64,000 nucleotides of DNA. Source: a virus. Lineage: Duplodnaviria; Heunggongvirae; Uroviricota; Caudoviricetes. Location: the IMG/VR virus record IMGVR_UViG_2913147268_000005; one strand, given 5' to 3'. Position numbers and translations under genes: made by a program. The notes beneath the pieces were generated by a model. It ran no database searches, was not told where the DNA came from, and saw only the letters and a program-made list of their open reading frames with translations. Below, one piece after another: positions 5,867 through 56,098 of this stretch; position 1 is the stretch's first letter; each line of letters opens with the position of its first letter.

Positions 5867-5939
5867 GTTGCTAACGAATCATCCTGGACTTCATATGCCC
5901 CAGGCGGCTACTTCGTGGGCGTCCTGCCTGTTCGTTATC

Positions 5940-6031
5940 TTTGACATAAAATCTAACTTAACTTAGTTATTATGGCAAGAGAAAACACCAAACTTTTCTT
6001 AGTTCGGTGCCTTAGTTAGAGAAGAGAGGTC
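5940..6031 (-). promoter_or_regulatory. Putative leftward early promoter/operator region (PL/OL-like) with CTTAGTT repeats
   Basis: Repeated CTTAGTT / AACTTAGTT motifs immediately 3' of the repressor gene; same motif family as in the cI-cro intergenic region. Confidence 0.4.
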
Positions 6032-6658
6032 TTAGAGTTCGTATTGAACTCCTTTGACTACACCAATGATAAGGCAATTACCATTGATAGGGATGTTGGG
6101 ATACCGAGGATTTAATGGCACTAAAAACTTTTGAGGGCCATCGATGACTAATTTTTTTACTGTAGCTTCGTTTGTTCCATCAAGTCGAGCGATGACTATT
6201 TTTCCATGACGAGGTTCTGCATCTGGATCTACAATCACTGTTGCGCCTTCTGGTATTGTTGGGAGGCCATTAGGGTTAGTCATGGAGTCACCTTTAACCT
6301 CTAATGCAAATGAGTTATCACCAATCTTTAATGATGTATCTACCCACTTGTCCACTTCACTAAACACTTCTGCTGCCCTGCACTCAGTAAACTGCCCAGC
6401 CTGAACCCACGATATTACAGGAACTCTGCGCATGTTTGTGACGAGTTTGCCTTCAAACTCAGCACCATAAAGAATGTAATCTATTGACGTATTGAAGAAC
6501 TTCGCTAATTTCGAAAGTGCCTCCCCACCAGGGGTATTGATGTCTTTCTCCCAGTACCCCACAGCAACGTCGCTTACTCCACAAAATTTACCCAATTCTT
6601 TCTGGGACGTTCTGGTAACTCTTCTCAGAGCTTTTATACGCTGACCAACCGTTTCCAT
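6032..6658 (-). CDS. cI: CI-type phage repressor (HTH plus LexA-like S24 peptidase domain)
   Basis: 208 aa; N-terminal HTH (QKELGKFCGVSDVAVGYWE); C-terminal autocleavage domain with Ser (GDSM) and Lys (VIARLDG...KKL) regions; divergent from the cro-like gene. Confidence 0.85.
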   Translation of the reverse strand: METVGQRIKALRRVTRTSQKELGKFCGVSDVAVGYWEKDINTPGGEALSKLAKFFNTSIDYILYGAEFEGKLVTNMRRVPVISWVQAGQFTECRAAEVFSEVDKWVDTSLKIGDNSFALEVKGDSMTNPNGLPTIPEGATVIVDPDAEPRHGKIVIARLDGTNEATVKKLVIDGPQKFLVPLNPRYPNIPINGNCLIIGVVKGVQYEL

Positions 6659-6755
6659 AGGAGCACCATTTCTTTAATTACTAAGTAATCTTAGTTTTTA
6701 TTGACCAAAGATAGATTTGTAATTAGCATCTAATAAAACTTAGTTTGGAGGGCGT
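6659..6755. promoter_or_regulatory. Divergent repressor/cro promoter-operator region
   Basis: 97-bp intergenic region with the 13-bp palindrome ATTACTAAGTAAT and two CTTAGTT half-site-like repeats. Confidence 0.6.
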
Positions 6756-6956
6756 ATGACAACTGACGATATCGAAAGCTACTTCGGCAGTATTGAGAAA
6801 GTTGCTGCTTTTTTCGGCATAACAACTGAAGCCGTTTATCAGTGGCGAAACCGTCCGGGCCAGTTAATTCCAAAAGGACGTGCAGCAGAAGCTGCATATA
6901 GAACTTGCGGACGGTTGCCATTTAAACCTGAGCTTTATGAAAAATCTAATGGATAA
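6756..6956 (+). CDS. cro: Cro-type small HTH regulator
   Basis: 66 aa; HTH-like segment (EKVAAFFGITTEAVYQWRN); divergent from cI. Confidence 0.7.
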   Translation: MTTDDIESYFGSIEKVAAFFGITTEAVYQWRNRPGQLIPKGRAAEAAYRTCGRLPFKPELYEKSNG

Positions 6957-7546
6957 ATCGATTAACAGAAACCACAGAACGATGAGGCTAACCGTGGGTA
7001 AGCATCACTGGAAAGTAGAAAAACAGCCTGAGTGGTACGTGAAAGCTGTCAGAAAAACTATCGCAGCGTTGCCGGGGGGGTTACGCTGAAGCTGCTGACT
7101 GGCTGGATGTAACAGAGAACGCATTATTTAACCGCCTTCGTGCCGATGGCGATCAGATTTTCCCGCTGGGATGGGCAATGATTTTGCAACGTGCTGGTGG
7201 AACTCACTTCATTGCAGATGCTGTGGCGCAGTCTGCAAATGGCGTCTTTGTGTCTCTTCCTGACGTCGAGGATGTGGACAACGCTGATATTAACCAGCGT
7301 CTGCTGGAAGTCATTGAACAGATCGGCAGTTATTCAAAACAGATTCGTTCAGCAATCGAAGACGGTGTAGTGGAACCGCATGAGAAGACAGCAATTAATG
7401 ACGAGCTCTACCTCTCAATTTCGAAGCTGCAGGAGCATGCAGCACTGGTCTACAAAATTTTTTGCATTTCAGAAAGTAATGACGCCCGCGAGTGTGCAGC
7501 TCCGGGCGCCGTGGCGTGTCGTGACTGTGGAGAAACTAACGCATGA
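6937..7546 (+). pseudogene. CII/YdaT-like regulator gene interrupted by a frameshift at a G7 homopolymer
   Basis: ORF 6937-7089 and the frame ending at 7546 join into one ~203-aa product if the G7 run at 7074-7080 were G6; the downstream part (ENALFNRLRADGDQIFPLGWAMILQ) resembles CII-type regulators. Confidence 0.4.
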
Positions 7547-14951: not shown

Positions 14952-16004
14952 ATGAAAAATACTGTAAAAATAAACAGTGTTGATTTAATCAACGCTGATT
15001 GCCTGCATTTTATTCAGTCCCTGCCTGATGATTCCATTGACCTGATTGTTACCGATCCGCCTTACTTCAAGGTGAAACCCAACGGTTGGGACAATCAGTG
15101 GAAAGGGGACGAAGATTACCTTAAGTGGCTGGACCACTGTCTGGCCCAGTTCTGGCGGGTGTTGAAACCTGCCGGAAGCCTTTACCTGTTCTGTGGGCAT
15201 CGCCTGGCATCTGATATTGAGATCATGATGCGTGAACGTTTCAACGTGCTTAACCATATCATCTGGGCGAAGCCGTCCGGACGTTGGAATGGGTGTAATA
15301 AAGAAAGTCTGCGCGCATATTTTCCTGCCACAGAGCGCGTTCTGTTTGCTGAACATTACCAGGGGCCATATCGTGGCAAAAGTGACGGCTATGCGGCAAA
15401 AGAAAGGGAACTCAAACAGCACATAATGGCACCGCTGATATCGTATTTCAGTGATGCTCGTGCCGAACTGGGTATAACGGCAAAACAAATTGCCGAAGCC
15501 ACAGGTAAGAAAAATATGGTTTCCCACTGGTTTGGTGCCAGTCAGTGGCAGTTGCCGAATGAGGCTGACTATCGGAAGTTACAGGCACTGTTTTCCCGTA
15601 TAGCGGCAGAGAAGTTTCAGGAACAACAACTGGAACAACCACACCACCAGCTGGTGGCATCTTATGATTCACTGAATCGCAAATATTCTGAATTGCTGGA
15701 TGAGTTTAAATCTCTCCGGCGCTATTTCTCCGTATCAGTCTCCGTGCCTTATACCGATGTCTGGATGCATAAACCCGTTCAGTTCTACCCGGGTAAACAT
15801 CCGTGTGAGAAACCGGCGGATATGCTCAGGCAAATAATCAATGCCAGTAGTCGACCTGGTGATCTGGTTGCTGATTTTTTTATGGGATCCGGTTCCACAA
15901 TAAAAGCAGCAATGGCGCTGGGGCGTCGGGCCTTAGGTGTTGAGCTTGAGTCAGAGCGGTTTAACCAGACAGTGAAAGAGATAAACGAGCTGGTGGGGAA
16001 ATAA
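14952..16004 (+). CDS. DNA methyltransferase (amino-methyltransferase family, DPPY motif), apparently orphan
   Basis: 350 aa; catalytic motif (LIVTDPPYF) and C-terminal AdoMet-binding region ([13 protein letters not shown]); no adjacent restriction gene seen. Confidence 0.85.
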
Positions 16005-16071
16005 TCTGGTGGCCACGTCAGGTGGCCTTTTTATTTCCATTACACAGCACCCGCATCTGCGAGGTGGGGTT

Positions 16072-16287
16072 ATGAAATCCATGGATAAGTTAACAACGGG
16101 TGTCGCCTATGGCACCTCAGCAGGTAGTGCCGGGTACTGGTTTTTACAGTTGCTCGATAAAGTCACGCCCTCACAGTGGGCGGCAATAGGTGTGCTGGGT
16201 AGTCTCGTATTTGGCCTGCTGACGTACCTGACAAACCTTTATTTCAAGATTAAAGAAGATAAGCGCAAGGCTGCGAGAGGTGAATAA
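16072..16287 (+). CDS. S: Pinholin, phage 21 S-like, with dual start (MKSM)
   Basis: 71 aa; closely resembles the S21 pinholin as I recall it ([19 protein letters not shown] ... [22 protein letters not shown]); GAGGTGGGG RBS. Confidence 0.8.
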
Positions 16288-16784
16288 TGCCTCCATCATT
16301 ACGAAAAGCAGTTGCTGCTGCTATTGGTGGCGGAGCAATTGCTATAGCATCAGTGTTAATCACTGGCCCAAGTGGTGACGATGGCCTGGAAGGTGTCAGC
16401 TACATACCATACAAAGATATCGTTGGCGTATGGACTGTATGTCACGGACACACCGGAAAAGACATCATGCTCGGTAAAACGTATACCGAAGCAGAATGCA
16501 AAGCCCTCCTGAATAAAGACCTTGCCACGGTTGCCAGACAAATTAACCCGTACATCAAAGTCGATATACCGGAAACAACGCGCGGCGCTCTTTACTCGTT
16601 CGTCTACAACGTGGGTGCTGGCAATTTCAGAACATCGACGCTTCTTCGCAAAATAAACCAGGGCGATATCAAAGGCGCATGTGACCAGCTACGTCGCTGG
16701 ATATACGCTGGCGGTAAGCAATGGAAAGGCCTGATGACTCGTCGTGAGATTGAGCGTGAAGTCTGTTTGTGGGGGCAACAATGA
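16287..16784 (+). CDS. R: SAR endolysin (lysozyme with N-terminal signal-anchor-release helix)
   Basis: 165 aa; N-terminal Gly/Ala-rich hydrophobic segment ([18 protein letters not shown]) followed by a lysozyme domain; follows the pinholin. Confidence 0.85.
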
Positions 16785-32982: not shown

Positions 32983-33750
32983 ATGGGTAAAGGCAGCAGT
33001 AAGGGGCATACCCCGCGCGAAGCGAAGGACAACCTGAAGTCCACGCAGCTGCTGAGTGTGATCGATGCCATCAGCGAAGGGCCGGTTGAAGGTCCGGTGG
33101 ATGGATTAAAAAGCGTGCTGCTGAACAGTACGCCGGTGCTGGACACTGAGGGGAATACCAACATCTCCGGTGTCACGGTGGTGTTCCGGGCAGGTGAGCA
33201 GGAGCAGACACCGCCGGAGGGGTTTGAATCCTCCGGCTCCGAGACGGTGCTGGGTACGGAAGTGAAATATGACACGCCGATCACCCGCACCATTACGTCT
33301 GCAAACATCGACCGTCTGCGCTTTACCTTCGGCGTGCAGGCACTGGTGGAAACCACCTCAAAGGGGGACCGGAATCCGTCGGAAGTCCGCCTGCTGGTTC
33401 AGATCCAGCGTAATGGTGGCTGGGTGACGGAAAAAGACATCACCATTAAGGGCAAAACCACCTCGCAGTATCTGGCCTCGGTGGTGGTGGGTAACCTGCC
33501 GCCGCGCCCGTTCAATATACGGATGCGCAGGATGACGCGGGACAGCACCACAGACCAGCTGCAGAACAAAACGCTCTGGTCGTCATACACCGAAATCATC
33601 GATGTGAAACAGTGCTACCCGAACACGGCACTGGTCGGCGTGCAGGTGGATTCGGAGCAGTTCGGCAGCCAGCAGGTGAGCCGTAATTATCATCTGCGCG
33701 GGCGCATTCTGCAGGTGCCGTCGAACTATAACCCGCAGACGCGGCAATAC
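32983..33750 (+). pseudogene. J: Host-specificity tail protein J, N-terminal ~256 codons only
   Basis: Begins MGKGSSKGHTPREAKDNLKSTQLLSVIDAISEGP as lambda J (about 1130 aa); similarity stops after ...SNYNPQTRQY. Confidence 0.85.
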
Positions 33751-34417
33751 AGGCATTCTGTTCGCGGAACATTATCAGGGGCCGTATCGTCCGAAAGATG
33801 CCGGGTATGCGGCGAAGGGCAGTGCACTGAAACAGCATGTGATGGCCCCGCTGATTTCTTACTTTCGTGATGCGCGCGCGGCCCTGGGGATAACGGCAAA
33901 ACAGATTGCAGATGCCACAGGAAAGAAAAACATGGTGTCGCACTGGTTCAGTGCCAGTCAGTGGCAGCTACCGAACGAAAGCGATTATCTGAAATTACAG
34001 TCGCTGTTTGCCCGGGTGGCAGAAGAGAAACATCAGCGCGGTGAACTGGAAAAGCCCCACCACCAGCTGGTGGATACGTATACGTCACTGAACCGGCAGT
34101 ATGTGGAGCTGCAGAGTGAATATAAGCATCTGCGGCGGTATTTTGGTGTGACGGCGCAGGTGCCGTACACGGATGTGTGGACACATAAACCGGTGCAGTT
34201 CTATCCCGGGAAACATCCGTGCGAAAAACCGGCAGAAATGCTGCAGCAGATAATCAGCGCAAGCAGTCGTCCGGGTGACCTGGTTGCAGATTTTTTTATG
34301 GGCTCAGGTTCAACGGTAAAAGCGGCACTGGCGCTCGGGCGTCGTGCGATTGGCGTTGAGCTGGAGACCGGACGTTTTGAGCAGACAGTCAGGGAAGTTC
34401 AGGGTTTAATCGTTTGA
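33751..34417 (+). pseudogene. DNA methyltransferase C-terminal fragment (paralog of the 14952-16004 gene)
   Basis: Roughly 80% protein identity to the C-terminal 220 aa of the upstream methyltransferase; out of frame with the J fragment; internal ATG at 33839. Confidence 0.8.
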
Positions 34418-34466
34418 AACGGATGAGATTGCAGAATTAATTACGCACCATTATTATTCTGCTCCC

Positions 34467-34542
34467 GGCCCTTTAGCTCAGTGGTGAGAGCGAGCGACTC
34501 ATAATCGCCAGGTCGCTGGTTCAAATCCAGCAAGGGCCACCA
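34467..34542 (+). tRNA. tRNA with CAU anticodon (ileZ-like tRNA-Ile2 or tRNA-Met)
   Basis: Cloverleaf with acceptor GGCCCTT/AAGGGCC, GTTCAAATCC T-loop, CTCATAA anticodon loop, 3' ACCA. Confidence 0.8.
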
Positions 34543-34642
34543 TCACAAACCGCCATTAGCTTATCAGGAAGAGCAGACGACACGATAACAGGGTTGTTGG
34601 TGCGGGGGCGGGTCCCCGATGGCGGTCCATTATCGGTATTCA

Positions 34643-34719
34643 GCGTTGTTAGCTCAGCCGGACAGAGCAATTGCCTTCTAAGCAATCGGTCACTGGTTCG
34701 AATCCAGTACAGCGCGCCA
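34643..34719 (+). tRNA. tRNA-Arg (UCU anticodon)
   Basis: Cloverleaf with TAGCTCAGCCGGACAGAGC D-arm, CCTTCTAAG anticodon loop, GGTTCGAATCC T-loop, 3' GCCA. Confidence 0.8.
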
Positions 34720-34826
34720 TATTCATTCTTCCAGATTCCTTCCGGCAGAGCCTTATACTGAAATATACCTGGCTCAGGATATTGTTGAAAATATTATATG
34801 TTTGTCAAAAATAAAAGTTCTGTTAA

Positions 34827-35183
34827 GTGTTGATTGAGTGTTTGTTATACGGTCTAATGGTTTTTTCAGCATTAAATATTTATCATTCATATGGTGTGGG
34901 TAGAGTGAATATTGATGAGGCGTCGGGGTGTTTCATCCTTAGGCAGCGTATTGATATAGTCAATGCAGCACGAGCAAAGGCCTTCAGCCGTTTGACAGTT
35001 TTGTTCTGTACTCCTGATCGTCTTTCGGGAAGAGACGTTATTATTCTGAATAGTGATGCTATACAGAGGGTTTGCGATGAGTTCATGGTGGCTAATTCAG
35101 AATTATTTACTCTTGTTCAGGAGTACAACAGAATAGCCAGGACCTGTGGTATGGATGAACTTCGGATTACTCATCTGGGGTAG
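34827..35183 (+). CDS. Hypothetical protein (108-118 aa), AT-rich
   Basis: GTG or internal ATG start; no recognisable motif; occupies the slot after the tRNAs. Confidence 0.4.
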   Translation: MLIECLLYGLMVFSALNIYHSYGVGRVNIDEASGCFILRQRIDIVNAARAKAFSRLTVLFCTPDRLSGRDVIILNSDAIQRVCDEFMVANSELFTLVQEYNRIARTCGMDELRITHLG

Positions 35184-35569
35184 ATACATATCTGGATTAT
35201 CACCGGTTACGGTAAAAAGTGATTGCTTACTGTTTTTGTGAATGGCATTGCTGCAGCCGGATAATGTCAGTGCTGGCTGACGGTGTGCTGGTGGCGGGTG
35301 TGGTGGTTGTTGCTTTCCCGTTGCTGAAAAAGAAAACGCCAGACTGTTAGCCGGGTATCAGTTAGCGGGAGAAATTTTTAAATACTTCACAATTCAGGCG
35401 GTTGATTGTTGTCTGGTTTGCGGGGAGTTTGTTAAAAGAAACTGGCATGGTGAATCCCCCTGTGCGGAGGGGCAATCAGCGAGTAGGTATATGGGATAAT
35501 CGCGGATTCAGGTGCTGGTACTGAATTCACCGGGAGGCACCCGGCACCATGCAATGGCACATAGCGCCA

Positions 35570-35600
35570 CTCTCCAGCCCCTCTCCGGAGGGGCTGTTTA
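35570..35600 (+). terminator. Hairpin (9-bp stem CAGCCCCTC/GAGGGGCTG) followed by a T-rich tract
   Basis: Perfect 9-bp stem with 4-nt loop; sits between the convergent 34827 and 35631 ORFs. Confidence 0.5.
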
Positions 35601-35630
35601 TATTGATTTTGTCAGATGTGAGTAAACTCC

Positions 35631-35966
35631 TTATGGACTTTGTTGTTTTAGTCCATAAGGACATATTTGCAGAGTGCAACGGTTATTAAAGCATTCATTC
35701 AATACGTTATCTGTATTTGTAGGGCATTCCTGGCTGTTTTTGATTAAATTCCAGAATGTTTTATTGAATGGTACTACGTTGTAAATGGTTACAGGTAGCA
35801 CTTTGTTATTGAGCATGATGCCTGTGTGAGTCAGTGTAAATATACTTTCAGGAGGTAAGAAAGCATCCGATTGATACCAGATTATTAATTTTATTTTACT
35901 CCATATGACTGAAAAAGATATTCCGCATGATGGCTGGATAACTGTATCAATCACAATCCACTTCAT
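35631..35966 (-). CDS. Hypothetical Cys-containing protein (111 aa), AT-rich
   Basis: ORF on the minus strand in an AT-rich island; no motif assigned. Confidence 0.4.
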
Positions 35967-36211
35967 TTAGTTTCCTTGTTTATGCCTTGCTGGTGATGTT
36001 CTGAAAAGTATAAATGATATTTTTGATTGTAAACCATAGAGCAGAATTATTTTTCTGATGTTGTTTATTGTTTATTTAAATGCAGGGTGGTTTATATCTC
36101 GTCTTGTAGTTTATCCATGCATATCTGCTTGATGATGAGGTTTTTATTTAAGGTATGGTTTTGTGTTTTTTCTGTATTACATGTCAGGTATTTTAAAGAA
36201 TCATTTTTCAG

Positions 36212-36705
36212 ATGGTGGAAAGAACCATGGCATTTAAACACTATGATGTTGTCAGGGCGGCGTCGCCGTCAGATCTTGCGGAAAAGCTGACACATAAACT
36301 GAAAGAGGGCTGGCAGCCGTTTGGTAGTCCGGTGGCCATAACCCCTTATACCCTGATGCAGGCGATTGCAGCAGAAGGTGATGTGGTCGTCAGTGGTGCA
36401 ACTGAGCCGGAGTGGTACTACGTCATCGTACTGGCCGGGCAATCCAATGCCATGGCTTACGGTGAAGGGCTTCCGCTTCCGGATTCATACGATGCGCCCC
36501 ATCCGCGCATTAAGCAACTGGCCCGTCGTAACACAGTGACTCCCGGTGGTGAAGTATGCGTATTTAACGACATCATTCCTGCTGACCATTGTCTGCATGA
36601 TGTTCAGGATATGAGTACGATTAACCATCCCCGGGCTGACCTGAGCAAAGGGCAGTACGGCTGTGTCGGACAGGGCTTACATATTGCCAAAAAACTGCTT
36701 CCGTG
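36212..36705 (+). pseudogene. NanS-p-like esterase, N-terminal fragment
   Basis: Matches the 54243 esterase through ...GQGLHIAKKLLP (including the GQSNA motif), then diverges into the antisense of another ORF. Confidence 0.6.
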
Positions 36706-37339
36706 CATTTTTGGTAATATCCGTCAGCGTCAGCGCATTCAGCCCCAGTGTCAGACTGTCTTTTATGACCTGGAATGCCGGGCCAGCCACTCCATTCAGT
36801 TTCGGAGTAACCGTGGCACTGCCGGCGGTGAACACCAGCTCCAGCGTCTGCCAGTCGTTACTGTAATTCCCGAACTCGCCCAACTTTGTGTTTCCTGCTT
36901 TCTTGTGATGCATCAGATTCAGTTTGCCGTCTGTGGTCTGGGTGAAGAACGACATCAGGAACGGGTTACCAGTCCCGGTCATCGCCACGACGTCAGGTAA
37001 CGCTACATCGGTATACAGATAAATTCCCAGACCGAACTGATTGTTGGTCAGTGCGCCTGACAGTCGAAACTTACAGCTCAGTCTGCCACCCCGTGTCAGC
37101 AGGGAGACTGCGTCATCCACCGGGCGCGTCAGGGACCAGGCTTTATTGCTCTGCTTGGTGATCTTAAATACACCATCTGACAACTGAATTCCGCCATTCT
37201 TAATGCTCCAGCCCTGCGCAGCAGCATCTCCGGCTGTCGGCAACAGGGAGATTGTGCGTACGGATGCATCTTCAGACGGCCCCGATGGCGTGTCGCCGCC
37301 GGGCGAGGGTTTGATTTCCGGTGCCTTACCACTAGTCAT
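36677..37339 (-). pseudogene. Inverted gene fragment (220-aa ORF) starting with the 56-bp repeat and ending in the antisense of the esterase fragment
   Basis: Begins MTSGKAPEIKPSPGGDTPSGP (the same peptide the 54243 ORF encodes at its junction); the last ~10 codons are antisense to 36677-36705. Confidence 0.45.
37278..37333 (-). repeat. 56-bp inverted repeat, left copy
   Basis: Reverse complement reads AGTGGTAAGGCACCGGAAATCAAACCCTCGCCCGGCGGCGACACGCCATCGGGGCC, identical to 55434-55489 by my reading. Confidence 0.8.
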
Positions 37340-37393
37340 CGGGCATTATCTGAACATAAAACACTATCAATAAGTTGGAGTCATTACCCAAAA

Positions 37394-54104: not shown

Positions 54105-54246
54105 CCCACCCACATGGGGAAACCTCGGAATATGGGGCGACCGCCTTCTGGATGCACTGGAAACCTGTAACGCGGATAAACGGGCCATTGCTGAACTGGA
54201 TAAGAGAATAGCCGAACTGACACACCAGACGGGAGTAACACAATGA
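53935..54246 (+). CDS. Outer-membrane lipoprotein spanin (LysC/Rz1-like), overlapping the i-spanin
   Basis: GTG start behind a GGAGAGG RBS; lipobox (LLTGCAG); Pro-rich mature region. Confidence 0.6.
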   Translation: MNSYATILQKMNAPTLCLTLVLLTGCAGTQNAPGPAPSVRLIPQTLTMPVTPPPFPDPPTWGNLGIWGDRLLDALETCNADKRAIAELDKRIAELTHQTGVTQ

Positions 54247-55706
54247 CCAGTAAGAACTTTGCACTGATTACAGCCATGACACAGGCTGAACTGACTCAAA
54301 AGGTGAATGAACATCTTGCGAAAGGGTGGCATCTTCAGGGGGAGACGCGGGTTGCCTACGAACCCGGCACCCCGTGGTATCTAATGCAGGCAATGGTGGC
54401 CGATGGCACTACAGACATCTCACCTGATTCCCCCCAGCACGGCAGCGTGCCGGAGTGGTATTACGTGGTGGTACTTGCTGGTCAATCCAATGCCATGTCA
54501 TATGGTGAGGGAATGCCGCTGCCGGATTCTTACGATGCGCCCCACCCACGCATTAAGCAACTGGCCCGTCGCAACACAGTGACTCCCGGTGGTAAAGCAT
54601 GCGCATTTAACGACATCATTCCGGCAGACCACTGCCTGCATGATGTTCAGGATATGAGCGCACTGAATCACCCGAATGCAGACCTGAGCAAAGGGCAGTA
54701 TGGCTGTGTCGGACAGGGCTTGCATATTGCCAAACGCCTGTTGCCTTACATTCCACAGAATGCCGGGATTTTACTGGTTCCATGCTGTCGTGGTGGTTCG
54801 GCATTCACCCAGGGCGCGGAGGGGACATTCAGCGAGTCCACAGGAGCCAGTCAGGATTCGGCTCGCTGGGGTGTGGGTAAACCTTTATATCAGGACCTGA
54901 TTTTGCGCACGAAGGCCGCATTGCAGAAAAACCCAAAAAACATGCTGCTGGCCGTATGCTGGATGCAGGGCGAATTTGACATGAGCGCCGCTACGTACTC
55001 ACAGCAACCTCCGCTGTTTACGGCCATGCTGAAACAGTTTCGTGCGGACATTACCGAGTTTAACACGCAGTGTCATGGAGGCAGAGCGGCAAGTGTGCCA
55101 TGGATTTGTGGTGACACGACGTATTACTGGAAAAACACCTACGGCACGCAGTACGACACCATTTACGGGGCGTACAAAAACAGGGAGAGCGACAACGTTT
55201 TCTTTGTGCCGTTCCTGACCGATGGTAGTGGCAACAATACCTCCACCAACGCACCAACGGAAGATCCGGATGCTGCAAGTGAGGGATATTACGGTTCGGC
55301 ATCCCGAACGAACAAAAACTGGGTATCATCAAATCGCCAGACGCATTTCAGCTCATGGGCGCGTCGTGGCATTATTCCCGATCGTATGGCAACCGCTATT
55401 CTGAACGTAGCCGGTCGCACCTTAGCCTTCATCAGTGGTAAGGCACCGGAAATCAAACCCTCGCCCGGCGGCGACACGCCATCGGGGCCCGGTGACCAGA
55501 CCGAACAGATTGGACACCGTCAGCGACGGTCTGGCACTGCTGCCCTTCCCGCTCATCTCAAAACCGCTGCCGTCAATCGGGTATGCCTGATATTGCCGCC
55601 CCTGCCAGGTGACCGGCTCCCCTTTTTCATTCAGCTCATTACAGAAAAAATACCGCTCACCGCCCTGTACCGTCAGGTCGATTTCCCAGAGTACCACCCG
55701 CGGTGA
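54243..55706 (+). CDS. NanS-p-like sialate O-acetylesterase (DUF1737 plus SGNH/SASA domain); native C-terminus lost
   Basis: GQSNA catalytic motif and a long SASA-type domain; from about 55490 the frame reads antisense through a truncated L gene. Confidence 0.65.
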   Translation: MTSKNFALITAMTQAELTQKVNEHLAKGWHLQGETRVAYEPGTPWYLMQAMVADGTTDISPDSPQHGSVPEWYYVVVLAGQSNAMSYGEGMPLPDSYDAPHPRIKQLARRNTVTPGGKACAFNDIIPADHCLHDVQDMSALNHPNADLSKGQYGCVGQGLHIAKRLLPYIPQNAGILLVPCCRGGSAFTQGAEGTFSESTGASQDSARWGVGKPLYQDLILRTKAALQKNPKNMLLAVCWMQGEFDMSAATYSQQPPLFTAMLKQFRADITEFNTQCHGGRAASVPWICGDTTYYWKNTYGTQYDTIYGAYKNRESDNVFFVPFLTDGSGNNTSTNAPTEDPDAASEGYYGSASRTNKNWVSSNRQTHFSSWARRGIIPDRMATAILNVAGRTLAFISGKAPEIKPSPGGDTPSGPGDQTEQIGHRQRRSGTAALPAHLKTAAVNRVCLILPPLPGDRLPFFIQLITEKIPLTALYRQVDFPEYHPR

Positions 55707-55757
55707 CTGCTCTGACTTAACCGACTCGTTCAGACTTTCTTCGCGAATATCCTGCAT
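55422..55757 (-). pseudogene. L: Minor tail protein L, N-terminal ~90 codons only
   Basis: About 80% identical to the L N-terminus at 30931 (VVLWEIDLT...GGERYFFCNE...PVTWQGRQYQAYPI), then diverges at the 56-bp repeat. Confidence 0.7.
55434..55489 (+). repeat. 56-bp inverted repeat, right copy
   Basis: Identical to the reverse complement of 37278-37333 by my reading. Confidence 0.8.
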
Positions 55758-56098
55758 CAGTTCACCACCTGCTCAATCGTACAACTGAAATCACTGTGCC
55801 TGGCGTTATCTGTGACGCTCCACTCCCGGCACACCACCCTCACCGTCAGGTTATGTTTCGGCGGTCGCCACAAAAAGGCACGGTAACCACCATGCCACGA
55901 TAAAAATTCATCCAGCCAGCGCCGGGTTGGTTCATCCGTCACCCGGAACACCGCCTGAAACGTCTTCAGTCTGGCATTAAGTCCCGTCGGTCGGCGCTGT
56001 TCATAACCGTCACCAAACCGAACCCTCACCACCGACGGTTTCTCACTCACCTGCATCCCTTCACGCGGGACCAGATGCAGCGTTTTTATCTCAGCCAC
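55757..56098 (-). CDS. M: Minor tail protein M
   Basis: 113 aa; shares GDGYEQRR and HGG..AF.W.PP motifs with the M protein at 30592. Confidence 0.85.
   Translation of the reverse strand: MAEIKTLHLVPREGMQVSEKPSVVRVRFGDGYEQRRPTGLNARLKTFQAVFRVTDEPTRRWLDEFLSWHGGYRAFLWRPPKHNLTVRVVCREWSVTDNARHSDFSCTIEQVVN

Follow-up and report, generated by a model that had tools for sequence, protein, structure and literature searches.

We analysed a 64,000-nucleotide stretch of phage DNA (IMG/VR record IMGVR_UViG_2913147268_000005, Caudoviricetes; referred to here as the window), focusing on the block at 33753-36704. This block is very probably a truncated copy of the 'moron slot' in the late region of a lambdoid prophage, a slot that is common in extraintestinal pathogenic Escherichia coli (ExPEC), for example in sequence type 131 (ST131) and in the potB prophage of strain CFT073. 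More than 400 complete E. coli genomes, most of them ST131, contained the block at 100% identity, while the CFT073 potB prophage carried the same module at 97-99% identity. The intact order in the 100%-identical genomes was Q, a hypothetical protein, a methyltransferase, tRNA-Ile, tRNA-Arg, DUF3927, (a pseudogene), an IraM-type gene, a SASA esterase, holin, YdfR and lysozyme. Most of the locus is already known (i.e. iraL, the small RNA STnc100 and the ileZ/argO tRNAs); the exception is the function of ORF1, a small open reading frame (ORF) in the cargo position.

The first-pass annotation of this DNA had described a locus resembling that of Shiga toxin (Stx) phages, in which a methyltransferase fragment, a CAU tRNA, a tRNA-Arg (UCU) and a NanS-p-like esterase surround two convergent AT-rich ORFs, one on the plus strand (ORF1, 34827-35183) and one on the minus strand (ORF2, 35631-35966), both taken as cargo in place of stx. 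These features and their Stx-phage-like arrangement were confirmed. The GC content was 34.5% in ORF2 (iraL), 29-32% in the adjacent intergenic stretches and 44% in the core of ORF1, against about 53% in the flanks. The apparent mystery of what replaces stx is, however, removed, since most of the supposed unknown cargo belongs to the iraL/STnc100 module already published for ExPEC prophages.

The cargo slot and ORF1

The homology to a Stx2a phage (L002) ended at 34727, which is 8 nt past the tRNA-Arg, and began again at 35387, some 30 nt ahead of STnc100. The segment between these limits therefore lies exactly at the stx2AB position, and ORF1 is truly 'in place of stx', as had been proposed. 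In L002, stx2A and stx2B occupy 5928-7295 (1368 bp), and the counterpart in the window is 659 bp. A tblastn search of Stx2A and Stx2B against the whole window gave a best E value of 0.5, so that no Stx-like sequence was seen, in agreement with the first-pass annotation. The proposal did not hold for ORF2. In the Stx2a phage, which has kept stx2AB, an iraM-type gene (73% identity) is present at the same place, downstream of stx2B, indicating that ORF2 is a conserved neighbour of the slot and not a replacement of stx.

Judged from its pattern of substitution, ORF1 is a real protein-coding gene under purifying selection. The firmly coding core runs from a GTG start at 34905 to the stop at 35183 (92 amino acids). 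When it was compared with a divergent clade, the frame from this GTG was free of indels as far as the common stop, with a nucleotide identity of 68%, and the differences by codon position were 23/22/43. The ratio of nonsynonymous to synonymous substitution rates (dN/dS) was 0.27 in frame, as against 1.18 and 0.88 off frame. The core was also intact in 81/81 loci, these being near-identical viral contigs. One could instead suppose that ORF1 is an open frame that arose by chance in AT-rich DNA between genes, in which case the slot would hold the DUF3927 mini-ORF only. This would fit with the NCBI Prokaryotic Genome Annotation Pipeline (PGAP), which annotates the DUF3927 mini-ORF in identical genomes and leaves ORF1 unannotated, with a GTG start that has no strong Shine-Dalgarno sequence, and with the absence of Pfam and NCBIfam matches to ORF1. 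The chance ORF is, however, effectively refuted by the low in-frame dN/dS (with values of about 1 off frame) and by an open frame and stop that are kept at this divergence, and the intact copies, the same-length homologues at 21-40% identity and a confident fold prediction also speak against it; we give it next to no credence. The possibility, raised in the first-pass annotation, that comparative analysis might show the ORFs to be non-coding thus came out on the coding side for ORF1.

The coding status of the 5' extension at 34827-34904 is uncertain. In a codon-aware comparison, this segment resembled the N-termini of the ORF1 relatives P0014 and P0015 at the protein level. In two other loci (L012 and L013) its counterpart is a separate short frame, the TGA of which overlaps the core GTG, and the distant family members (91-95 amino acids) are without the extension.

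An exhaustive profile search of 1.84 billion representative proteins yielded only about 20 members of the ORF1 family, none of them annotated. The cassette itself was present in 1183 of the 5426 complete genomes, where PGAP annotates DUF3927 and not ORF1. The divergent clade (57-61% amino acid identity) occupies the same slot in further E. coli prophages, where an AraC-type gene precedes it. A 43%-identical member in Citrobacter braakii lies between tRNAs and a TerB-like/holin/endolysin set, and homologues of equal length, down to 21-40% identity, occur in other enterobacterial prophages. The gene directly upstream of the ORF1 homologue in L012 (3186-3911) and L008 (1933-2658) encodes an AraC-family regulator of 241 amino acids, the two genes being separated in L008 by an inserted IS3-family element. 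A steady linkage of ORF1 with DUF3927/Tci genes was also considered and was rejected, being inconsistent across clades. ORF1 is thus a conserved, selection-constrained gene of the stx slot (about 92-118 amino acids) that standard annotation has missed in more than 1000 complete genomes.

The AlphaFold model of ORF1 (predicted local distance difference test score, pLDDT, 85) consisted of two long antiparallel helices with a conserved TPDR turn between them. ORF1 had no match in PADLOC, Foldseek searches of the model against PDB and BFVD gave nothing at E < 0.3, and the literature on the CFT073 tags c1426-c1428 yielded nothing relevant. We take ORF1 to be most likely a small cytoplasmic antiparallel coiled coil that acts by binding another protein, although we hold this with low confidence.

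A remote likeness to the GapR/UPF0335 (DUF2312) DNA-binding nucleoid proteins was indicated by the top PDB sequence matches of the family profile, which were all GapR (E 0.05-0.25), and by an alignment that spans helix 1 and the turn in proteins of similar length (hhalign pairwise E 5e-4; with GapR relatives that all shared at least 83% identity, the profile was little improved). However, the hhalign probability was 16-30% over 48 columns, PF10073 was matched by 0/9 members of the ORF1 family, nothing in ORF1 corresponds to the basic C-terminal half of GapR, and the core of ORF1 is without an excess of basic residues (11 K+R and 12 D+E). With a weak, partial profile match and no PF10073 match, the assignment was not supported, and we consider it very unlikely. 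Another possibility is that ORF1 binds a regulator, as a TraM-like anti-activator or an extra anti-adaptor, and works with the AraC-type neighbour in the divergent clade or with IraL/STnc100 here. The position of the divergent-clade ORF1 directly downstream of an AraC-family gene agrees with this, as does the adjacency of ORF1 and iraL in the window. The AraC neighbour is, however, absent from the present clade and from Citrobacter, and ORF1 did not match an NCBIfam Ira family, and we regard this proposal as improbable.

The coiled-coil reading of ORF1 can be taken further, though here we are speculating well beyond what we would consider likely. ORF1 might be an overlooked lysogenic-conversion factor, carried in the exact stx slot by about one in five complete E. 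coli genomes, those of ST131 and CFT073 among them, with the tRNA block and STnc100 forming a portable cassette site. As a coiled-coil binder of a host regulator, it might even act in the same RpoS/stress circuit as iraL. If ORF1 does have a phenotype, it would be an extra lysogenic-conversion factor for the pandemic ST131 lineage.

iraL, STnc100 and the tRNA block

Both ORFs had been described in the first-pass annotation as lacking recognisable motifs. This was incorrect for ORF2, which clearly belongs to the IraM family. It matched NCBIfam NF007393 with 162 bits (cut-off 121) over residues 1-110/111, and it matched the IraM structure (PDB 8TWD) with an E value of 9e-32. The same protein accession, WP_000871291.1, is given in a 100%-identical genome and in CFT073, where the protein is IraL. 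The CFT073 gene (c1429) was named iraL by Hryckowian et al. 2014 (PMC4045071). Experimental work has characterised IraL as an RssB anti-adaptor; it binds RssB and makes RpoS more stable, approximately doubling the RpoS half-life, and iraL has its own sigma70 promoter, active in the lysogen in log phase (PMC4045071). The 32-mer published from rapid amplification of cDNA 5' ends (5'-RACE) (PMC4045071) matched at 31/32 positions at 35968-35999 on the minus strand, with 0 matches expected by chance. The mapped transcription start therefore corresponds to 35999(-). By sequence, then, ORF2 is IraL.

The strong hairpin that had been noted between the two ORFs is the intrinsic terminator of STnc100, and a terminator scan placed it at 35575-35596 (9 bp, 7 of them GC, followed by a T-tail). 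Both published primers for quantitative PCR of STnc100 (PMC12370729) matched exactly, at 35446 and 35519. In Shiga toxin-producing E. coli, STnc100 lies 75 nt downstream of stx2B and has been detected by quantitative reverse-transcription PCR (PMC12370729), and we observed the same distance in L002. STnc100 is related to PasD and to Stx-phage origins, and STnc100/PasD variants can be confused (preprint 10.64898/2026.05.13.724894). Copies were seen in L002 (7325-7540), L008 (1344-1556 and 4650-4839), L012 (4569-4764 and 4829-4935) and the CFT073 locus L007 (4251-4440), at times in tandem. They follow differing cargo, namely stx2B in L002, ORF1 in CFT073, and in L008 and L012 both a TolA-C-like ORF and the homologue of ORF1, which argues for STnc100 as the right-hand boundary of successive exchangeable moron cassettes. 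This favours a model in which an exchangeable cassette is bounded by the tRNA block and STnc100.

On the minus strand, the terminator hairpin of STnc100 has no U-tract (35560-35631, downstream of the iraL stop), so that transcription from iraL may continue into STnc100 in the antisense direction. In an identical genome, PGAP annotates a pseudogene on the minus strand at about 35435-35560. In CFT073 (L007 2568-2691), Rfam detected the Hfq-binding RNA STnc490 (146 bits) just downstream of Q, beside IS200.

ARAGORN found exactly two tRNAs in the whole window, both having the cloverleaf, the anticodon and the identity with the phage ileZ/argO genes. The CAU tRNA is annotated as tRNA-Ile by RefSeq/PGAP in identical genomes and in CFT073, and its sequence was invariant in the alignment with the Stx2a phage and CFT073. 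Following this label, it is predicted to read AUA after lysidine modification. The 100 bp between the two tRNAs contain a decayed argN, which still shows conserved acceptor, D and T arms but carries another sequence in place of the anticodon arm; an intact tRNA-Arg(UCG) is present at this position in CFT073 and in the phage Stx2_EH1910. None of the tRNA tools called the decayed gene. The same decayed variant is also present in phage vB_EcoS-640R1.

The ileZ/arg tRNAs of Stx phages are considered to serve the rare codons of the cargo genes. In the ORF1 core, AUA/AGA/AGG make up 8/93 codons, and AUA makes up 6/112 in iraL; these counts fit with that idea. The two tRNAs would decode AUA and AGA, codons in which the cargo genes are enriched.

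For the intact element, we propose a layout in which Q/PR' would be followed by the methyltransferase, tRNA-Ile(CAU)/argN/tRNA-Arg(UCU), the cargo, STnc100, iraL on the opposite strand, the nanS-p esterase and holin/lysozyme. The cargo position, which is that of stxAB in Stx phages, is filled in the present element by ORF1 (phrog_2873) and the DUF3927 mini-ORF. ORF1, DUF3927 and STnc100 are co-oriented and would, like stx, be traversed by the late transcript that Q antiterminates, and the strong terminator at the end of STnc100 would close the cassette. In this window, only genes with their own promoters would be expected to function, i.e. iraL certainly, and possibly the tRNAs, ORF1 and STnc100.

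Features of the block and its surroundings (window coordinates; L-numbers are comparison loci)
Feature	Position	Strand	Basis
Lambdoid prophage, ending inside gpJ	1-33752		mosaic segment
N6/N4 DNA methyltransferase, 3' fragment (prophage)	33753-34417	+	PF01555 E 2e-25; 100% identical to L001 5954-6618
tRNA, anticodon CAU, ileZ-type of Stx phages	34467-34542	+	ARAGORN; Rfam tRNA 72.5 bits
Decayed argN (tRNA-Arg UCG)	34543-34642	+	alignment with CFT073 and Stx2_EH1910
tRNA-Arg (UCU), argO-type, predicted reader of AGA	34643-34719	+	ARAGORN; Rfam 68 bits; alignment
Cargo cassette (ORF1 + DUF3927) in the stx2AB position	34728-35386	+	homology boundaries against Stx2a phage L002
ORF1, small protein gene, phrog_2873	34827-35183	+	phrog_2873 E 1e-69
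DUF3927 mini-ORF, 43 amino acids, hydrophobic, TciB-like PHROG	35219-35350	+	PF13064 93 bits (cut-off 25); phrog_1470 E 1e-12
STnc100 small RNA, full length	35416-35605	+	Rfam RF02076 132.4 bits (gathering score 47), model positions 1-206/206
iraL, IraM-family RssB anti-adaptor, 111 amino acids	35631-35966	-	NF007393; PDB 8TWD; WP_000871291.1
iraL 5' untranslated region (UTR) and promoter region	35967-36050	-	published 5'-RACE sequence
NanS-p-type SASA sialate O-acetylesterase, 5' fragment, ~164 codons	36212-36704	+	PF08410 E 7e-16; phrog_143 positions 1-173/634; L001 100% up to 8905; tblastn residues 1-164
Inverted 3' piece of the same esterase (residues 389-598, DUF6645)	36704-37334	-	L001 10221-9591 reversed, 100%; PF20350; phrog_143 positions 397-613; tblastn
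IS1 terminal sequence, ~54 bp	37335-37389	-	matches run into IS1A in strains p4A, MB1159, 4993
P2-like prophage	37389 to ~55489		mosaic segment
Inverted morphogenesis genes, same prophage as the late block	55488-64000		mosaic segment

State of the locus in the window

The locus in the window is a remnant. It is without Q, PR', the lysis genes and most of the esterase, and both the methyltransferase and the esterase are broken. This status applies to the window only, as the identical block sits in intact Q-to-lysis regions of hundreds of genomes; the first-pass description of a remnant lacking Q and the lysis genes thus holds for this DNA and fails for the block elsewhere. We found no Q homologue in the window, and holin/lysozyme genes were present only at 16.0-16.8 kb, in a different prophage.

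The methyltransferase fragment corresponds to codons 130-349 of the intact gene (tblastn, residues 130-349), and the ORF was called at 33839-34417. The 5' third of the gene is gone, and at 33752/33753 the fragment is fused to the N-terminal part of the tail-tip gene gpJ of another prophage, whose FNIII-A domain lies in the ORF 32983-33870; the identity to gpJ-bearing genomes ends at 33752. The NanS-p-like esterase of the first-pass annotation begins at 36212 with a DUF1737/esterase N-terminus. This 5' fragment comprises the DUF1737 domain and the start of the SASA domain, and is truncated at 36704. The 685 bp between the two esterase pieces are absent, and the DUF1737, SASA and C-terminal regions of NanS-p were not found in one frame. 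We take the end at 37335-37389 to be IS1, as recognised from the IS1 inverted repeat.

Some features were absent from the first-pass annotation, namely STnc100, the DUF3927 ORF, the decayed argN and the inverted 3' part of the esterase gene. The segment of the P2-like prophage ends in a third esterase-like gene (54243-55489; 74% amino acid identity to the NanS-p type, residues 1-396), which is cut by the junction at 55489. The first prophage contains, at 14952-16775, a related methyltransferase (82% amino acid identity) with holin and lysozyme directly after it. Since no tRNAs, cargo, iraL or esterase lie between the methyltransferase and the holin, this is an 'empty' version of the same slot.

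Some observations count against our reading of the block as a truncated late-region slot. Promoter-like sites in 34400-36300 were not enriched (6 found, 5.0 expected in shuffles). For the 5' extension of ORF1 (34827-34904), the ratio of nonsynonymous to synonymous polymorphism (pN/pS) was 0.72 and could not be distinguished from the off-frame controls (0.84-0.87). Finally, none of the junctions of the window was present in any of the 5426 complete E. coli genomes, and the 'remnant' state could therefore be an artefact of assembly or construction.

If this were so, the truncations would not be biological; the sequence would be chimeric, mis-assembled or deliberately rearranged, and the real locus would be the intact ST131 Q-to-lysis region. 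The junctions at 33752/33753, 36704/36705, 37334/37335 and about 55489 are all blunt, with 0-2 nt of microhomology, as such an artefact would have it, and each mosaic segment is 100% identical to ST131 genomes, yet the junctions between the segments are absent from the 5426 complete genomes. Pieces of one prophage also appear three times, in differing orientations. However, one of the junctions carries a 54-bp IS1 end, and some ST131 strains have an IS1 insertion at precisely this site, which is compatible with a real IS1-mediated rearrangement. Rearrangements between prophages are, moreover, common in E. coli. An artefact is a possibility that deserves to be kept in view, but we think it rather unlikely, and we retain the truncated late-region slot as our reading of the block.

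Comparison with known late regions

The closest intact counterpart is the late region of the ST131 prophage, which retains everything, whereas the window has lost Q, part of the methyltransferase, most of the esterase and the lysis genes. The iraL locus of the CFT073 potB prophage has the same IraL protein, promoter/5' UTR, ORF1, DUF3927 and STnc100 as the window, with 98.8% nucleotide identity over 34720-35640. CFT073 keeps Q, three intact tRNAs and the lysis genes, and IS200 replaces its methyltransferase; the anticodon arm of argN, lost in the window, is intact there.

Among characterised proteins, IraM of E. coli K-12 (PDB 8TWD) belongs to the same NF007393 family as ORF2, with 51/78 residues identical over the solved part, and both are RssB anti-adaptors. 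They differ in their contacts with RssB, as IraL contacts only its N-terminal domain, while IraM contacts both domains (PMC4045071). In comparison with the STnc100/PasD small RNAs in Rfam, the copy in the window is full length with its terminator, and lies between cargo and esterase as it does in Stx phages.

When the window was compared with Stx-converting late regions in general, the flanking synteny was present (methyltransferase, ileZ/arg tRNAs, STnc100, iraM-type gene and nanS-p), while stxA/stxB in the slot, Q/PR' upstream and a holin-endolysin set downstream were not. The Stx2a phage Stx2_EH1910 (LC567834) has the order Q, methyltransferase, ileZ/argN/argO, stx2AB, STnc100, iraM, nanS-p and lysis genes, which matches that of the window, and its methyltransferase and tRNA block are 92% identical to the window up to 34727. 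The two differ in the segment that follows, which holds stx2AB in 1368 bp in Stx2_EH1910 and ORF1 with DUF3927 in 659 bp in the window, so that STnc100 comes after stx2B in the Stx phages and after ORF1/DUF3927 here. Beyond the cargo they again agree, both having STnc100, an iraM-type gene on the opposite strand (73% amino acid identity) and then the NanS-p esterase.

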